From Curvularia clavata (Eukaryota): 40,469 nt of DNA. This document shows, in pieces, positions 1-40,469 of the stretch. The position numbers were made by a program, and so were the translations under genes. The stretch lies in the NCBI GenBank assembly GCA_023920165.1, contig CP089279.1, forward strand, positions 2,976,001 to 3,016,469, read 5' to 3'. The notes below the pieces were generated by a model. The model saw only the letters and a list, made by a program, of their open reading frames with translations, had not been told where the DNA came from and made no database searches. The stretch's first letter is position 1; each line of letters begins with the position of its first letter.

Positions 1-2391
1 TGGGATGCCCAGTTGCTACGCCGCGCTGGCAACCTAATGGGCGCCGAGTCGCGACACAAGGGCGCCAGCGTCCTCCTGGGTCCTACTGTCAACATGCAGC
101 GTAGCCCCCTCGGTGGCAGAGGCTTCGAATCCTTCTCAGAAGACCCAGTCCTGGCCGGCATATGTGCCGCTGCCGTCATCAATGGCATTCAGGATACGGG
201 GGTGCAAGCTGCCATCAAGCACTTTGTCGCCAACGACCAGGAGCACGAGCGCATGGCCGTCAATTCCATTGTTACACAGCGTGCCCTCCGCGAGATCTAC
301 CTATTGCCATTCCAGATTGCAGTTCGGGACTCCAATCCTGCCTCGTTCATGACTTCGTACAACAAGGTCAATGGCACCCACGTCAGTGAGGACAGCAAAG
401 TCCTCAAGGACATTCTCAGGCATGAATGGGGCTGGCACGGTCTAGTCATGAGCGACTGGTGAGCGAGTGTGGTCATTGTAAGGGCCTAGCTAATGACCTC
501 ACAGGTATGGCACCTATTCCACCTCAGAAGCAGTCAACGCAGGCTTGGATCTTGAGATGCCAGGCCCCACAAGATGGCGAGGACAGCTTCTTCACCACGC
601 CCTTGTTGCGAAGAAGGTCAGGCCCGATGTCATTGATGAGCGCGTTCGTGCTGTCTTGACTTGCATCCAACGCTCCATCGCGGCTGGTATACCGGAAAAT
701 GCTCCCGAAGAAGAGCGGGATACTCCAGAGACCGCTGCTCTGCTGCGTGACATTGCCAGCCAGGGCATCGTCTTGATGAAGAATGAACAGGATGTCCTTC
801 CATTCAAAAGAGATAAGAAGGTCTGCAAACTCACGTAATTGGCTACGCGCTTGCAGTACTGACAACCATTACCAAGGTTCTTGTCATCGGGCCCAACGCA
901 AAAACTGCCGTATTTTCAGGAGGTGGTTCGGCCTCCTTGAGGCCATACTATGCTGTTACTCCCTTGGACGGGATATCGCACAAGGCCGAGAATGTCGAGT
1001 ACACCGTAGGCTGCCACGCACACAAGATGCTTCCAGTCCTCGGTCCTCGTATGCGTACGGCTGAAGGACGAACCGGTGTTACATTCAGAGCCTTTACGGC
1101 CCCACCTTCAGATACTGATCGCAGAGCGATCGACCTGATCAATCTGGTTGATACCGATATGTATTTCGCTGACTATTACCACCCAGAGATAACAGAGGAT
1201 CTGTGGTGGGGCGAGATCGAGGGTTTTTTCACTCCAGACGAGTCCGGAGAGTTCGAGTTCGGCCTTGCCGTCTTCGGGACAGCGAACCTCTACGTCGATG
1301 GTGAGCACGTAATTGACAACGAGACAAAACAGCGAGGTGGTGGTACGTTCTTCAATGTCGGCACTATAGAGGAGACAGGCACGAAATTCCTCGAGGCCGG
1401 CAGATCCTATGAGATCTTAGTGTCTTTCGCCAGCGGTGCAGCATCTAAAGTCGAGGGAGCAGACGGCGTGGTATCGTTCGGGGGTGGAGGTGTCCGCATC
1501 GGCGGTGCAAAGCTCTTGAACGCCGATGAAGAGATCGCTGAGTCGGCTCGCCTCGCCATGAGCGTCGAACAAGTCGTACTCTGCGTCGGTTTGAACGCAG
1601 ACTTTGAGCAGGAGGGTCACGATCGCTTACACATGAAGCTCCCTGGCCGTACGGATGATTTGATCGCGGCAGTCGCCGCCGCCAACCCTCGAACCGTCGT
1701 GGTGGTACAGTCCGGCACACCAGTAAGCATGCCGTGGGCCGATACGGTGGCAGGCATCATGCAAACCTGGTACGGGGGTAACGAGACTGGCAACGCTATT
1801 GCTGACGTACTCTTTGGAGATGTCAATCCGTCAGGCAAGCTGCCCCTATCGTTCCCCATCTGTGTCGAAGACAACCCGGCTTACCTACACTATCGATCGG
1901 AGCGCGGACGCGTTCTCTACGGGGAAGATATCTACGTCGGCTACCGATATTATGAGACGGTCAAGAAGCCTGTCCTTTGGCCTTTTGGTTGGGGTCTGTC
2001 GTATACCAGCTTCAAACTCTCCAACGTCGACTGCGAGCAGGGCATACGCGGCGGGAAGAATGTGATTTCGGTTACGCTATCTGTCACTAATACGGGGCCA
2101 GTGGACGGCGCTGAGGTCGTGCAGATGTACATCGCACAGCGGTCCTCGTCCATCAAGCGACCTCAAAAGGAGCTGAAGGGCTTCACGAAGGTCTTTGTAC
2201 CAGCTAAGGCCACGAAGGCAGTACAAGTCATCGTCGAGAGGAAATACGCGACGAGCTTTTGGGACGAGGAGCGTAATCAGTGGATCGAGGAGGCCGATAC
2301 CTACGATGTCTTCATGGGCACGAGTAGCGCTGATGCCCGTCTGTCGGCTACGTTCAAAGTCAAAGCGACAAGCTGGTGGTCTGGGCTATGA
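1..2391 (+). CDS. GH3 beta-glucosidase with PA14 insertion and C-terminal Fn3-like domain (5' end lies before the window)
   Basis: Motifs [41 protein letters not shown], nucleophile region [39 protein letters not shown] introns 459-504 and 821-876 join three ORF pieces in frame. Confidence 0.95.
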
Positions 2392-33136: not shown

Positions 33137-34938
33137 CTAGTTTATATTTACTAGATGCAGTCTAGTATTAAAGCTATTTAGCTTTTCTATACTAGTTGGT
33201 TTAGTTAATATATCTGCTAGTATTGTTTTAGTATTTTCATATACTAAATTAATATTATTTTCTTGTAGATTTTCTCTTACAAAATGGTAAGTTATATCTA
33301 CATGTTTTGTTCTAGCGTGATATATTGGATTTTTAGCTAATTCTATAGCGCTCTGGCTATCTGTTTTTATAATATTTGTAATATTAAATATATTACTAAT
33401 ATCTTGTATAGAATTATAGCTAAATAGTTCTTTAAGAAAGTTATTCAAATATAGACTTTCTTTAGTTGCTTCTTTTAAAGCTATATATTCAGCTTCAGCG
33501 CTTGAAATAGCTACTACTTTCTGAAGCTTTGAAATCCAGCTTATAGCTATATTTTTATTTTGCCAGTTATTTAAATTATTTTGCAAAATAAATAAATTTC
33601 CACTAGTGGATTTTCTAGTGTCTAAATCACCCCCCCAATCTGAATCACTAATTCCAATAAGATTGATTGTTTTATTTATATATTTTTGAGATTCAGTTTG
33701 TAGAGTAAGATTTAATCCATAGTTTTTAGTTTTTAATAAATAGCTAAATATATTATTTAGATATTTATAGTGCTCTAAGCTAGGATTACTCATATATCTA
33801 GCTAAATAATTAACACTAAATGCTAAATCCGGCCGAGTAAATATAGTTAAATATATTAAACTGCCGATTTCTTTTTGGAAATCTTTAGTTAATTTAGTAT
33901 TAATTTCTTCTTGGTTTTTAGCTAGTTTACTACCTATAGCTATAGGTATATCTTTTGGCTTATTTAGTAGCTTATTATACTTAAACAGTATTTTATTTAT
34001 AAAGCTACGCTGAGTAATTACAATAGATTTCTTAGATCTATCTCTTATAATTTCTACACCAAGAAATTCTCTAATTTCTCCCAAATTAGTTATTTCTAAT
34101 TTAGATATATCAGAAATTTCTTTATATAAATCGTCTATTAGATATTTAGTTTTTGCAAAAACTAGAATATCATCGACGTGTGTAGCTAAAATAACTGCTT
34201 TTTTATTATGGATATAAATACTATTGTCTATTTTTAGTGGAGTAAAATCTAGCTGTTTTAGTATATTTGCTAGAAATAATTGCCACTGTCTAGACGCTTG
34301 TTTTAATCCATATAGTGCTTTATTTAGTCTACAAACTATATTATCATAGTTTTTGGTAGCTATTATATTTTGAATATATTCAATTAAAGCTTTGTCTGTT
34401 ATAGTTTTTAAAGCTTGATGTAATATATATTCTTCTAATCCAATTGGTAGTTGGACTAGTGTATTTTTATTATCTAATTCTGCATTGGGAAAAGCTTGTT
34501 TTACATCCCAAGTATAAATTTCCCAATCTAAATAGCAGAATATAGATAATAATAGTCTAATAATACTAGGCTTACTAGTAGAAGCAAAGGTTTCTTTATA
34601 ATTTATATTATATTGTTGTAAAAATCCTTTTGCTACCCATCTAGCTTTATATTTTTTAATAGTATTATCAAGATTTAGCTTTTTATTTAAAACCCAGCGG
34701 CCTTTTATCATATTATTTTTAGTAGCTGGCTTTTGTATTAAATCCCATGTATTAGATTTAATTAAATTGTCTATTTCTAGCTTCATAGCTTCTAGATATA
34801 GATTTTTATCAGATCTAGTTAATACTTCTTTATAGCTTTTTGGCTCAACTAAGCTAGTATTTATAGAAGTATTTAATATATTATATAATATAGAGTTATT
34901 ATATAGACTTTTCCAATCAGCTCTAGATTTGATATTAT
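33137..34938 (-). mobile_element. Ty1/Copia pol fragment: reverse transcriptase (RVT_2) plus RNase H, reading frame open
   Basis: EPKSYKE, KGRWV, KARWVAKGF.Q, DVKQAF, RLNKALYGLKQASRQW, HVDD, RPDLAF, SDSDWGGD..TRKSTSG, SSAEAEY, HARTKHVDI.YHFVRE, ADILTKP. Gag, protease and integrase are absent. Confidence 0.95.
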
Positions 34939-34950
34939 TAGACTGGTAAA

Positions 34951-35235
34951 TGGGCTGGGGCAGGGCTGGGGCAGGGCTGCTAAGAGTTGGGTAGGGGTAG
35001 GGCTGGGTCAGATGACTAAGCAACCCAGCCCTGCCCCTACCCAACTCTTGGCTAACCCAGCCCTACCCCAGCCCGCTTATTAAGCAACCCAGCCCTGCCC
35101 CTACCCAACTCTTGGCATTTAAGTTGGGTAGGGGCAGGGCTGAGTCAGTCAAGAGTTAGGTAGGGGCAGGGCTGGGTTGCTTAATAAGCGGGCTGGGGTA
35201 GGGCTAGGTTGCTTAGTACTAGGTTATGCTGGGTC
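34951..35235. repeat. G-rich subterminal repeats in alternating orientation (AAGAGTTGGGTAGGGGCAGGGCTGGGT unit)
   Basis: Inverted pairs about 34982-35008/35023-35049 and about 35055-35114/35150-35210. Each unit has four G-tracts. Confidence 0.9.
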
Positions 35236-35423
35236 TTAGTTATTAGATATATATATACTCCGTATATATCAAAGACTTATCACGCATAATTATCACAGTA
35301 GTAAATTAAAAATTAAGAACTTATAAAACTTTCATTTAACTTCTAGCATATAGCTAGTTCTCAATTATAGCTATCCCTCAATCATAAAAGCCATCAGTAC
35401 TTGATACTCCATCATAAAAGCCC

Positions 35424-36392
35424 TCAGTACTTAATACCACCCATACCAAGCCTATTAAGATAGTGCTTAACAAGATCCCCATCCTTCTTCTAAATAGTAA
35501 CTCTCTTAGCATAGATAGCGTTCATATTACAGTCTAGATCCGTTAGCAGCTATAATTAATATCTGTAATAATATAACATACCCTCAAGAAATCCAACCAA
35601 AAAATACTCAGCAGCCTCTTAAAGACCTTCCAACGCCTCTCTCTAGATACATAGAGGGTGTTGCGGATATACGTCTCCCATAATCTCCCTAACAAGTTTT
35701 ACAAATCGAGTCCTTAGAATAAGCAGATCAGTAGACTTCTAGAATCTTTTAATCTCTTTTAGTACAACAGCTAGTAATTATTAGTCGCTTACTGTAATAA
35801 ATAACTATAATAAACTTACTACCAGACTTAAACCTACGCCTCTTAGAGGCGCCAGACGTAGATAGTTGAGCACCAGGCGGTGCAGGAGGGCCGGACTCGT
35901 CTTCCTCGCTGCTTTCCGACTCTTAATCCTCATTATCGGGCTTAGGCGTGGGCGGCCTATAATTAACTGGCTGCTTACGAGCGGTTTTGCCACCTACACC
36001 ATAGAACATAGTGCCAGTCCTACTATTAGTTAGCTATTACTTGTAATAAATTACCGTGATAAACGTACGCAAAAGATACAAGATAGCCACTAGTCAAGAT
36101 ACGGGGCGGAGAGGGATAATCGTAAGTAGTAGTCCTAGCATTTATTAGCCATTTCCTATAATAAATTACTATAATAAACTTACGGATTTAGTTGGCCACC
36201 TTCGGCAGAAAAAGTAGGATTGCCAGTCATCTAAGCTCCCAAAACCTCAAATTCGTCTTCAAGAGCTTCTAATTCGCGAGGTGACAGCAGCTAAGACACC
36301 TGTCTTTCAGGCGACGGGAGCACATTTAACCGTTCTACCATCTCCTCAAACGACTCATCGTCTAGCCCCCCCACCTCGTCTACTGCTAACAT
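35424..36392 (-). pseudogene. Histone H3-like gene with long N-terminal extension, RIP-inactivated in this copy
   Basis: Five exons (introns 36135-36183, 36023-36068, 35771-35819, 35534-35581) splice to 777 nt without frameshift: ART...GGKTARKQP...KRRRFKSGTVVLKEIKRF*KSTDLLILRTRFVKLVREIMGDVYPQHPLCI*REALEGL*EAAEYFLVGFLEDCNMNAIYAKRVTI*KKDGDLV. The four histone-fold stops lie at Gln positions of fungal H3. Confidence 0.9.
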
Positions 36393-36916
36393 AGTACGTG
36401 ATAAATCTCTGTAATAACTAGTAGGGTTGAGTTGAGAAATTTGGCGTTAGGCTAGGAAAGTTAGATTTAGATTAAGAGAATTGGTGGACAAATACTTAGC
36501 TATAGAGTAGTTAAGAATTTTAGGGATATATAAGTAGGTAAAGATAAAGGTAAAGGTGAGTGCACAGATCACCCAGAGTCTTGCTAAAGGTCTGCGAGAT
36601 AGTTAGCAAGAAATCGCCATAACTCAACGAAGCAGTAATTAAATACTATAATAACTAGCTCATTAGATAGAGCTACTCCAGGGCTTTCAAATAAGACTAA
36701 AATCAAAGCACTCCAACTTTTATTATCCAAGATATTGGCTATATGAAAGATGTTGTTCGCTAGCCCAACGCTAGCGCGAAATCCAGAGCGCACGGACCCC
36801 TAATTACCTTAATAGATAGACTATCACCAAACTTCCTACTCTCTCTTAGCAACCATCCCCCCCCTCCCTACCCCCACCATACTAGACGTTATATCAGTAC
36901 TTTATCACAGTCAACA

Positions 36917-38113
36917 ATGCCGCGCACGCCAGAAATCAAGCGCGAGTCTACGACAGAGGCTGATAGCAACGTACCTAAGGGTCTAGCACCTCCACGCGTT
37001 GCCCAAATACCCAAGGACTTTACTAAGCAGAAGTAGGCAGATCTTACTAAAATAATAATCCCAGTCTATTATCACAGTAAATACTAACGTTAGTAAGGCT
37101 TTAAAAATAAGCAAAACAAAATCAATTTTATCATTACGCAACGTAGATCTAGAGGTTCCCAAAAGAGTCGTCCAACTAGTCTGCGAATCCAATATCAAGG
37201 TCAGCTTAGTAACACAGCTCGAGCTATTGCACAGAGAGATCTCGCCGCGTCACGTACCAAGGAAGAAGCCGCTCTCCAACGCGCCAAAGATACTAACCGC
37301 GCTACTCGGGCGAAATTTCTCAAGTCACTCAAAGAGAAAGAATAGTATAAGACCGCCAGAGAGGATAAGAAGAATAGAATTATAAAGAGCCATCTTAAAG
37401 AGCATGAATCCAAGCGCTTTAAAGAAAAGCAAAATAGTAAGTTATCACAGTCTTTTATTACAGACATCTACTAACAGTTATTAGCTAATTGGATGGCGTT
37501 TGCTCTCCAAGCTGTGCACGCGAAATGGTCCAAGATCCAGAATGAGATCGACAAAAGACGGCATCAGCTTATTCTCCAGACTACCTCTAGCGACGCCCCG
37601 TCTAATACCTCTACTAAGAGGTTACGCGTTTCTGCTCGTCTCTATAGTCGAAAGGGGGTTATTAACTCACTTATACGCAAAGAATATCTTCGAGAATTGG
37701 CTAAGCTAAACAACAACGCCTTTAAGAGCGAGCAAGCACGAGATAAATAGCTCAAGTTTTACAAGAACCTTTCTCCCAAAAAAAAAGAACTTGCTATAGA
37801 TAGTTCCTAGCAGTAAGTTTATCACAGTTTATTATCACATTCAAGAACTAACTAGTATAGACAAGAAAAGCCTACTTCTATTCTCAACCAGTTTGATCCA
37901 GATACGCGTCTTAAGGATAATAAGCCATATATCGAAGGCTATGATAGTAACAAGTATGAAGAAGAGATTAATAACGAGGATAAGATTATAGACGAGAATG
38001 AGGATGGCTATAGTAGTAACGATAGCTTTTTGGCTCCAGAGGGGGCTGATAGTGCTAAGATAGAGGAGGCTGAGGATCAAGACGAAGAGGCTGAAGAAGA
38101 GAAGTCTAAGTAG
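36917..38113 (+). pseudogene. Unknown protein with basic coiled-coil region and acidic C-terminal tail, RIP-mutated
   Basis: ATG 36917, introns about 37033-37093 (donor uncertain), 37437-37484 and 37813-37860. K/E/R-rich helix (RTKEEAALQRAKDTNRATRAKFLKSLKEKE) and tail EEEINNEDKIIDENEDG...EEAEDQDEEAEEEKSK*. Confidence 0.65.
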
Positions 38114-38410
38114 TGCTGGCTGTCCAAGCATATCTCTGACAATGCTCTAGTAGTTAGGGTTTAGAGTATTATGCCAGGGTTTATCCCAGCCAATAATCAC
38201 AGTATAACCCCTGTGTCGATCCAAACTTTCTCTTATATAAAACCTACTTCAGACATATGTCAAACAACACTAGTATTTTAGACAATCTTAGCTATGCTAG
38301 AAGCTAGAGGACTTAAAACTTCCTACCATATCCAGTTTTCCACAGATAATATTTGTCCATCTAGTAACTTTAATTTATCACAGTTATTTATCACAGGTAC
38401 AATCTTCACA

Positions 38411-40299
38411 ATGGCTAAGCCTTCTACAGAACCGCCAGATATCCTTGCGCATCTCAAGATAAATACTCCACACCAAGACAAAGGTGGTCTTAAAGTCACA
38501 CTTACACTCATCCAGTATCCAGTACTTGAAAATAATAGCAATAAAGAGAACAAAGCAATTATTTCAAACTAGAAGGAGTAGTGGAATAAAACACCATAAG
38601 CCCGAGATCCTTCGAAGCCAGTTCCACACTAGGGCTCTTCTTGTCGTACGAGCCAAATCTGGGCAAACTTTGGAAAGGCTGCAGAGATCCTAACTGGCCG
38701 TCCATATATCTTCTGCTCGAACTGCAGTTATATACTCGCGCACCCATCAGCTGGAAATATTAGTACAAAGCATCTTCATAGACATCGTCAAACCCAAACT
38801 TACCAGCTTATCTCTTCGCCTATACACAACAAGCTATCGAACTCACTCCGCCAAAGTATCCCACCACCAATAAATATTAATCCTCGCGCAATACCAGCCT
38901 ACTCAACTAAGACATACGAACAAGAACTAGTAAGAGTAGTAGTTAATAACTACTAGAGCTTCCGAACACTTAAGCGGCCATCATTTCAACGATTTCTCCA
39001 GTTTCTCCAGCCCAACGCTGTAATTATTAGCCGTTATAAATTCAAGCTAGCGTTTAAGTTACAATTTAAGAAGGCTTCAGCTAAGCTTCTCAATGATCTT
39101 AGCCAAGGAACAAAAATATCACTTGCATTAGATAGTTAGGCTTCAAGTAACCATCTTAGTTTCCTTACAATCAAAGGTTACTATATCAATACTCAATAGC
39201 AACTCAAAGAAAAACTTTTAGATTTTATACCGATCCATAGGAGACATACTAGAGCTTCAATAGCAGATAAAGTTCTAAAACTTCTTTCTAGAAGTGAACT
39301 CCAAAAAAAATTGCTATCCATTACTTGCGATAATGCCAGCAATAATAGCACTCTTACGCAGTCTCTTCAGCAAGGTCTACAACAACTTAGTATAAGCTAG
39401 AGTCCAAGTAAAAACACTATTCCCTACTTAGCCCATATTATCAACCTCGTTGTCCAGGATATTATCCAGCACTTAAGGCTGTCAGCTTCTACCAAGTTAG
39501 ATAATATACAAGATTTACAGAGACAACAGATCAATAAAGTAGATGCCAACATCTCAGTCCCCAATTCACTTCGCAAGGGAAGAATTTTTTATCACAGTTA
39601 TTTATCACATACTAACTACAATATAGATTAGAGCAATCTGCATTATAGTTGACTCATCTCCTCAGCGATACGAACAGTTTCTCGCAACACAACGGGATCT
39701 ACCACCAAAAAAACGCCTTAGTGTTATCCGTGATGTTAGAACACGATAGAACTCGACATATAATATGTGTAAGCGCGCAGTCAAGCTTCGGCAATATATC
39801 AATAAATGGCTCAAAGATAAAATCGCGTTAAGGGTTCCTATCCATACCAAAAACCTCTCAGAGGCCGACAACAATACTGATATTGATTCTCAGGATCTTA
39901 AGAGACTACGACTATCTGCACAAGAATAGTCGCATCTTAAGATAGTTACTAAAATACTTAGCCATTTCAAGACTACAACAATATCTCTAAGTCAGAGTTA
40001 AAAACCTCAAATACCATATATCTAGCTCATGTATAATCAGCTTTTTAATTTTCTTAATTAGATGGAGGTTGATTTAGAAGAAGACTCAGAGAATAGCAAC
40101 TGGCCACAAGTAGTAAGAGCTACGGCGGCGAAAGAGAGAGCAAAGTTAAGTAAATACTACTCGAAAACTAATAAAGAGCGTAGCTTCTTATTCAACTGCG
40201 CGACGATTCTTGATCCAACGCAAAAGCTTACAGCCTACGAGGTATTATCACAGATATTTATCACAGATAGATACTAATAGAAGATATAGAATAAGATAT
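38411..40299 (+). pseudogene. hAT transposase (BED-like zinc finger plus RNaseH-fold DDE core), RIP-mutated and 3'-truncated
   Basis: SQIWANF...CSNC...HLHRH, ISLALDS*, ITCDNASNN (about 39320), AHIINLVVQ (39431), SSPQR, DVRTR*NST (about 39732), ILDP (40206). Introns about 39578-39626 and from 40242. No C-terminal dimerisation domain before the telomere. Confidence 0.92.
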
Positions 40300-40415
40300 G
40301 GGGTTAGGGTAGGGTTAGGGGGTAGGGTTAGGGTTAGGGTTAGGGTTAGGGTTAGGGTTAGGGTTAGGGTTAGGGTTAGGGTTAGGGTTAGGGTTAGGGT
40401 TAGGGTTAGGTTAGG
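40300..40415 (+). repeat. Telomeric (TTAGGG)n tract
   Basis: Tandem TTAGGG with the G-rich strand running toward the end. The first units are imperfect (TAGGG, TTAGGGGG). Confidence 0.97.
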
Positions 40416-40469
40416 AGGTGCTGTCACACGAGTATGGAAGTCGTTCTTTAACCTTAGCAATACGTAACC
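40416..40469 (+). other. Untrimmed Oxford Nanopore native barcode and adapter (artefact)
   Basis: AGGTGCTG + 24-mer TCACACGAGTATGGAAGTCGTTCT + TTAACCTT + AGCAATACGTAAC matches the native-barcode flank layout and ligation adapter. The 24-mer matches barcode 13 as I recall it. Confidence 0.93.

Follow-up and report, generated by a model that had tools for sequence, protein, structure and literature searches.

Histone H3-like genes carried by transposons of the hAT superfamily have been described in two fungal systems. For Pyrenophora tritici-repentis, Manning et al. (2013, G3, PMC3538342) describe a hAT element of about 5.6 kb with an H3-like gene (H3L), a central open reading frame (ORF) and the transposase; the parts of that paper that deal with the element report 26 H3L copies as well as H3L expressed sequence tags and read the arrangement as the first fungal transduplication. 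The corresponding parts of Dhillon et al. (2019, Mob DNA, PMC6710886) describe 9.5-kb hAT elements in six Mycosphaerellaceae, with intronless H3-like copies that repeat-induced point mutation (RIP) has killed, and term the P. tritici-repentis event a 'recent and independent' transduplication. Among the papers listed in literature searches on hAT-borne histone H3 in fungi, none beyond these two deals with the subject, and the word 'histone' does not occur in Muszewska 2017 (PMC5751038). Here, we analyse an element of this kind in Curvularia clavata, in a stretch of 40,469 nt (contig CP089279.1, positions 2,976,001 to 3,016,469) that we call the window. An original prediction, made from the sequence letters without database searches, had proposed an H3-like gene inside a hAT transposon at this place and had pointed to a report of such genes from P. 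tritici-repentis, which the account of Manning et al. bears out.

The window contains one copy of an autonomous hAT DNA transposon that belongs to the P. tritici-repentis-type H3L-hAT family and has been killed by RIP and truncated by telomere repeats. In it, H3L (minus strand) is followed by a central gene encoding an acidic-tailed protein (plus strand) and by the transposase (plus strand). We hold with high confidence that H3L is what its name says and that it is a gene maintained by the element. Taken as a whole, the best explanation of the locus is a dead H3L within a hAT element, descended from an old gene that such elements maintain and that may act as a chromatin variant; we consider this explanation probable, with the mechanism as such graded lower, as set out below.

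A five-exon histone gene inactivated by RIP

H3L occupies positions 35424–36392 on the minus strand, and its five exons (Table 1) join into 774 nt, that is, 257 codons followed by TGA. The four introns measure 49, 49, 49 and 48 nt and have GTAAGT, GTACGT or GTATGT donors, CTAAC-like branch sites and TAG acceptors; for intron 2, the donor GTAATT at 36054 was rejected, as it breaks the frame that GTACGT at 36068 keeps. In sequencing run X19, a 568-nt contig (record 16) has its joints at 36133/36183(+1), 36018/36068(+1) and 35770/35822, corresponding to H3L introns 1, 2 and 3. Run X19 derives from the same organism as the best-matching DNA run, and the RNA nature of runs X16–X22 is a guess, none of them being registered as RNA. 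Intron 4 was accepted because of the homology to the database proteins P0001 and P0344 and because related loci with an intron there have it at the same position. P0344 (263 aa, Exserohilum turcicum) belongs to the 90% cluster of P0001 (162 aa, E. turcicum), the best H3L homologue, and is collinear with the entire product of the window gene, with identity in 178 of 256 aligned columns overall and, for the N-terminal extension, in 60 of 92. The five-exon model is real on two independent lines, the spliced contigs and the database homologue, and the five-exon minus-strand frame of the original prediction stands.

With X at the stops, exon 4 matches the Pfam family Histone (PF00125) at E=3.7e-9 (37.3 bits, cut-off 26.4); a further match, below the threshold, links exon 5 to profile positions 99–114. 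This Pfam score and the homologues rule out a chance ORF. The spliced product has the complete series alphaN-alpha1-L1-alpha2-L2-alpha3, collinear with P0001, P0344 and the canonical H3 rows, so that the complete H3 fold announced in the original prediction is confirmed by the Pfam match and the collinearity with P0344. Canonical H3 is about 55–60% identical to H3L over the fold, with GTVALREI, LVREI, LQEAAE and AIHAKRVTI retained; throughout the H3L family, GTVALREI..YQKS, LVREI, LQEA.E and AIHAKRVTI are conserved. Loop 1 of H3L exceeds that of canonical H3 by two residues. The tail ARTKQTARKSTGGKAPRKQ... and the C-terminus ...RRIRGERA of canonical H3 are both absent from the window protein: compared with canonical rows such as P0063 and P0067, GGKTARKQ is the only part of the tail that is kept, and the C-terminus reads ...KHYLNRLGMGGIKY. 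Across the family, the canonical ...MPKDIQLARRIRGERA is replaced by ...Q.KD..LA..YY[RK]K[YF], or by HYLNRLG in the window, and ...NAIHAKRVTIQ.KD..L...YY[RK]K[YF] is diagnostic of H3L. The homologue search with P0001 returned mostly duplicated canonical H3 predictions, the only family-specific proteins being P0241, P0256, P0260 and P0265, and in the representative search with relatives collapsed at 50% identity (12117 matches) only canonical-H3-like representatives were found beyond P0001 itself.

H3L is interrupted in frame by five TAG and two TAA codons, at codons 34, 54, 124, 169, 201, 209 and 236, and four of these seven stops are within the fold. The intact P0344 has Gln opposite four of the stops and P and H opposite the two N-terminal ones, and a fifth stop (codon 236) aligns with Gln in the tblastn alignment to P0001; the alignments to both proteins thus agree with the original prediction that the stops of the fold lie at Gln positions. 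The ratio TpA/ApT is 1.2–1.9 across 30–40.4 kb versus 0.4–1.2 in the rest of the window, and the H3L coding strand contains 67 TpA, 16 CpA and 56 TpG. On the plus strand, the X16 contigs differ from the window by 187 A>G changes only and the X19 contigs by 153 A>G and 3 T>C changes, indicating that the window copy took C-to-T mutations on the H3L coding strand (G-to-A on the plus strand) and that a less mutated version is present in that organism. This one-strand direction also explains why the transposase has its stops at Trp positions. The 434 pieces of DNA run X1 that align with the window carry 440 C>T, 215 A>G and 165 G>A differences and thus show that many copies with other RIP patterns exist. 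CpA has changed to TpA relative to less mutated copies, the signature of a RIP-mutated repeat, and the window copy of the hAT element together with its H3L has been killed by RIP.

H3L and transposase across related elements

Homology of the transposase assigns the element to the hAT superfamily. Its exon 1 (407 codons, X at stops) has 72 protein matches, including P0268 from Logan (406 aa, 83% identity over 100% of the query), about 40 metagenome or Logan proteins from JGI, ENA and Logan (356–723 aa, 41–60% identity over 82–100% of the query) and P0308, a 'Dimer-Tnp-hAT dimerization containing protein' of P. tritici-repentis from a cluster of 28 (691 aa, 57% identity over 57% of the query). 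The P. tritici-repentis 'Dimer-Tnp-hAT' proteins match the window transposase at E=2.2e-72, and distant matches carry PF05699 and PF14372. The stops of the window transposase align with W in P0348, and its RIP-damaged pieces match the Pfam family hAT-like_RNase-H at E=3.5e-4, below the cut-off. Because this copy is truncated at about 40243–40300, the window transposase lacks the hAT dimerisation domain (PF05699) that its homologue P0308 has at the C-terminal end.

For a comparison with relatives, an alignment of 34 transposases led to 80 metagenome loci of 506 relatives. A locus counted as testable if at least 2200 nt lay upstream of the transposase match (n=18), and 61 shorter loci were not counted. 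In tblastn searches with P0001, an H3-like ORF was found in 14 of the 18 testable loci (L001, L003, L004, L005, L010, L012, L015, L035, L038, L063, L067, L078, L079 and L080), the transposases of which are 28–52% identical to the query; the linkage of H3L homologues to hAT transposases on which the original prediction depended is thereby borne out. As in the window, H3L usually lies antisense to the transposase and about 2 kb upstream of it. Within the subclade of the window (clade A), H3L is present in 6 of 6 testable members, the window included, and H3L, the central ORF and the transposase occur together in the window, L001, L003/4, L005 and L010. Relatives are multicopy in Paraphoma (five accessions in two sequences) and Boeremia (four members). 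In the splice models of the loci, which allowed donors beyond GTRNGT, all metagenome H3L frames are open except that of L010, which has RIP-like stops. In this soil metagenome contig, the H3L at 395–717 (minus strand) has TAA or TAG at Gln and Trp-like positions and a G+C content of 39%, and it looks RIP-damaged.

The H3 tree comprises 46 rows. One starred clade (98/91*) unites the window, P0001, L001, L003, L005 and L010 with five database proteins, namely those of Paraphoma chrysanthemicola, Alternaria gaisen and Boeremia exigua and two from Logan, and the distant elements form a second starred clade (97/92*) with L015 beside it. The transposase tree contains the window subclade (100*, 12 rows including the window and P. 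tritici-repentis P0308) and the distant clade (98*), and the clades of the two trees match. Intron positions were compared among the H3L loci. The intron between alpha2 and loop 2 (H3L intron 4) is at the same place in all close and distant H3Ls having one there (L001, L003/4, L005, L010, L015 and the distant loci), and the intron after ...PG is common to most related loci; two of the four intron positions of the window gene recur in related elements. In all comparisons between different elements, the proportion of nonsynonymous differences (pN, 0.26–0.57) was below that of synonymous differences (pS, 0.65–0.95), and dN/dS was 0.11–0.39 where it could be estimated.

A probable element-maintained gene and its alternatives

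We regard it as well supported by these comparisons that H3L is probably an old gene of the hAT lineage, inherited with the transposase and under purifying selection, and not a recent passive capture, because the linkage holds across strongly diverged transposases, an intron position is shared and pN stays below pS. The transposon-maintained histone variant of the original prediction is thus supported for the family, by the linkage in 14 of 18 loci, the matching clades and pN<pS, and fails with regard to any function of this dead copy.

Several observations weigh against this reading or parts of it. No protein can be made from the window copy, which has seven stops as well as missense changes, one of them His to Tyr in AIHAKR, and the individual stop positions are not among the 40 differences listed of about 1000. 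The RNA label of X16 and X19 is guessed, X16 has an unspliced 1664-nt contig spanning all four H3L introns, and no spliced contig over intron 4 occurs among the sequencing-run contigs aligned to the window. Four of the 18 testable loci (L019, L031, L050 and L075) gave no H3-like match in tblastn with P0001; moreover, L003/L004 and L078/79/80 are near-copies, so that the distinct elements with H3L number 11 of 15. In L035, H3L is on the same strand as the transposase, and in L030 it lies downstream. The node uniting both H3L clades reaches only 84/83, with L012 as a long-branch outlier outside; a single clade of all 19 H3L rows costs 0.99 log-likelihood units, and the approximately unbiased (AU) test merely fails to reject it (p=0.425). 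The dN/dS values are rough because synonymous sites are saturated. The H3L tails vary so widely that no one lost modification site accounts for them. The comparison with P. tritici-repentis covered the architecture and the transposase, and the account of Manning et al. (PMC3538342) terms H3L translation 'possible' only, giving the H3Ls neither protein-level nor chromatin support in the parts concerned.

As to what a maintained H3L might do, we tentatively propose that it acts for the element as a variant incorporated into chromatin. Its intact histone fold would allow pairing with H4, and H3L would then enter chromatin as an element-encoded H3 variant, in which the changed alpha3/C-terminus and tail could shift nucleosome or chaperone contacts in favour of the element, for example against heterochromatic silencing or by promoting excision. 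In a broader version, H3L would belong to the ancestral core of a widespread hAT clade of fungi, where selection would have kept it and where it would be inherited with the transposase and, in one subclade, with the acidic-tailed partner gene. The element would thus encode a chromatin module of its own, an H3 variant possibly accompanied by an escort protein, which would be deposited on the element or close to it and so resist heterochromatic silencing or license excision; this version is possible, though doubtful.

A maintained H3L could instead stay out of nucleosomes and compete for H4, histone chaperones or histone-modifying enzymes, titrating them as a decoy and so weakening the host's silencing of repeats, which we consider rather unlikely. 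Such a role would suit the highly variable tails, the acidic tail encoded by the adjoining conserved gene and the replacement of I130, R131 and their neighbours by YY[RK]K[YF] or HYLNRL and of C110 by N, residues located where H3 meets H3' in the tetramer (numbering of canonical H3). The parts of the fold that face DNA and H4 (GTVALREI..YQKS, LVREI, AIHAKRVTI) are nevertheless conserved, as expected of a nucleosomal histone. We favour a chromatin-incorporated variant over a soluble decoy. The dead window copy does nothing under either reading.

Passive transduplication, in which a hAT element recently picked up a host H3 gene or transcript that became a functionless passenger, is the reading of both Manning et al. 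(PMC3538342) and Dhillon et al. (PMC6710886). It agrees with the Mycosphaerellaceae copies, which the latter account describes as intronless and all dead by RIP, and the window gene is dead too. It does not agree with the constant location of H3-like genes in elements that share no more than 28–52% transposase identity with the query, nor with the correspondence of H3L and transposase clades; the open metagenome frames (except L010), a pN far below pS, the C-terminus unlike canonical H3 and the intron position that the family shares, and the contigs spliced at introns 1–3 argue in the same direction. A recent passive transduplication is therefore disfavoured, and we consider it improbable. A host histone variant gene of the CenH3/Cse4 type that merely adjoins the transposon is very improbable: the source names P0344 'centromeric DNA-binding histone H3-like protein cse4', and the longer loop 1 and the long, divergent tail would be in keeping with this, but H3L lies inside the element, between the left terminal inverted repeat (TIR) and the transposase, has been RIP-mutated along with it, has many differently mutated copies in X1, as a single-copy host gene would not, and has relatives that are multicopy in Paraphoma and Boeremia and sit on hAT contigs in metagenomes, a case made from context and not from phylogeny, the tree having been built without labelled CenH3 rows.

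The element, its surroundings and the known systems

The features of the element are collected in Table 1. Its left terminus can be aligned to either end of L001 (TAGGCTGGCAAAAA...), a complete contig of 5902 nt, as well as to the right end of L005, and the repeats of the left end comprise the families D4/D6 and the inverted repeats I1–I3. With the left TIR starting at 34939 and the transposase at 38411, H3L is placed between subterminal repeats and transposase as the original prediction had stated; overlooked there were the central gene that separates H3L from the transposase and the fact that the telomere cuts the element short.

Table 1 Features of the H3L-hAT element in the window (positions count from the first nucleotide of the window).
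Feature	Position	Strand	Remarks
hAT left end	34939..35240	+	TIR starting TAGACTGGTAAATGGG, then G-rich subterminal repeats in both orientations
9-bp motif TTATCACAG	35290..40266	.	many pairs 13 nt apart
H3L exon 5	35424..35533	-	loop 2, alpha3, family-typical C-terminus ...KDGDLVKHYLNRLG; stop codon 236; TGA 35424-35426
H3L exon 4	35582..35770	-	alphaN, alpha1, loop 1, alpha2; stops at codons 169, 201, 209; 74% identity to P0001
H3L exon 3	35820..36019	-	GGKTARKQ (H3 tail remnant), acidic stretch, RRRFKSG; stop codon 124; X19 joint 35770/35822
H3L exon 2	36069..36134	-	both flanking joints present in X19 transcript contig
H3L exon 1	36184..36392	-	begins with ATG (36392); N-terminal extension, acidic; codons 34 and 54 are RIP stops; collinear with P0344
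Central gene	36917..38116	+	about 349 codons, 4 exons, strongly acidic C-terminal tail, RIP stops
hAT transposase	38411..40242	+	RIP-damaged, 3'-truncated; intron near 39576-39624
Telomere repeats (TTAGGG)n	40301..40414	+	cap the truncated element

At least 5.35 kb of the element remains ahead of the truncation; the right end has been lost to the telomere, leaving the TIR pair and the target-site duplication unreadable in the window. In X19, the transposase joint 39575/39625 is seen together with a loose end after 40242, where the contig continues for 233 nt unlike the window, and in the last bin the depth of X1 DNA is down to 28, from about 1000. The cut transposase and its (TTAGGG)n cap indicate that the contig end is a chromosome end healed inside the transposon. 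The last ~48 nt (40422–40469) are presumably an untrimmed nanopore barcode and adapter.

The joints 37048/37095, 37430/37484 and 37812/37861 of the central gene are seen in X16 contigs. In tblastn with the L003 exons, the gene was found in the window, L001, L003–L006, L009 and L010, that is, in every member of the window subclade long enough to reach its place. It matched no Pfam family at E<=0.04 and gave no Atlas match. AlphaFold models of its exons 2 and 3, built from only 5–6 sequences, are helical (mean predicted local distance difference test, pLDDT, 75.7 and 74.6), and a PDB-wide search with the exon-3 model returned single-long-helix matches only (Z<=5.7 over 42–48 residues), which are uninformative. 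An acidic tail next to a histone gene invites the idea that the predicted central protein might be a histone escort. Opposite the central gene, an X19 contig skips 203 nt (37467–37671) with CT..AC ends, corresponding to a minus-strand GT..AG intron, and this splice may reflect an antisense transcript.

The 9-bp motif TTATYAYAR has 25 matches in the window, 19 of them within 35290–40266, against 3.4 expected for the entire window; L003 has 25 matches versus 1.6 expected, and the motif also occurs in L001 and L005. Its sites lie in inverted subterminal arrays, at the element ends and, in all three genes, next to the donors of most introns, which makes the introns of the three genes look alike. 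Among the start codons checked, it stands directly 5' of those of H3L and the transposase in the window and of all three genes in L003. The motif may be bound by a protein of the element or may act as a regulatory element common to the genes, and its pairs in the leaders and introns suggest that the three genes may be co-regulated or bound by such a protein.

To the left of the element, a copia-type reverse transcriptase fragment (33137–34938, minus strand; RVT_2 E=3.7e-44) with 24–27% G+C stops at 34938, where the hAT left end cuts it off; the hAT element thus seems to have inserted into this fragment. About 600 codons of the fragment are open, which is odd for such a G+C content within the RIP block. 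Positions 1–30000 of the window hold subtelomeric genes encoding a GH3 glucosidase, a rhamnosidase-like protein, a sugar transporter, short-chain dehydrogenases, an enoyl-CoA hydratase, an NmrA-like protein, a Zn2Cys6 regulator, an MFS transporter, an S15 peptidase and a cytochrome P450.

As a sighting, the window is ordinary, a further dead copy of a type of transposon published in 2013 and 2019. The main addition is the comparison. In both papers, the histone gene is regarded as a host gene that was 'transduplicated'. If the reading of H3L as an element-maintained gene is true, these elements are among the few cut-and-paste transposons that maintain a core-histone gene for their own use, and they offer a concrete handle on a possible manipulation of chromatin by mobile DNA.

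Compared with canonical H3 and CenH3, H3L is encoded by a mobile element, multicopy and divergent in tail and C-terminus; it falls outside the canonical rows in the tree and evolves at about the rate of its transposase. Giant viruses are also mobile genetic elements that carry their own core-histone homologues, which package viral genomes, whereas the window counterpart is a cut-and-paste transposon of 5–6 kb that lives in host chromatin. The H3-hAT elements of the Mycosphaerellaceae resemble the window in their AT-rich RIP blocks and in H3-like copies inactivated by CpA-to-TpA mutation, and, as described by Dhillon et al. (PMC6710886), they are 9.5 kb long with an intronless H3-like gene, whereas the window H3L has four introns, three of them seen spliced, in an element of about 5.4 kb or more. 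The closest counterpart is the H3L-hAT of P. tritici-repentis, for which the account of Manning et al. (PMC3538342) gives the same three-gene architecture, multiple copies and H3L transcripts as in the window family. Its multicopy transposase P0308 is 57% identical to that of the window and belongs to the same 100* clade. The P. tritici-repentis copies are described as nearly identical and intact, in contrast to the RIP-dead, telomere-capped copy of the window, and the H3L of the window and Exserohilum is extended N-terminally by an acidic stretch of 92 codons and no longer has the tail start ARTKQTARKS.

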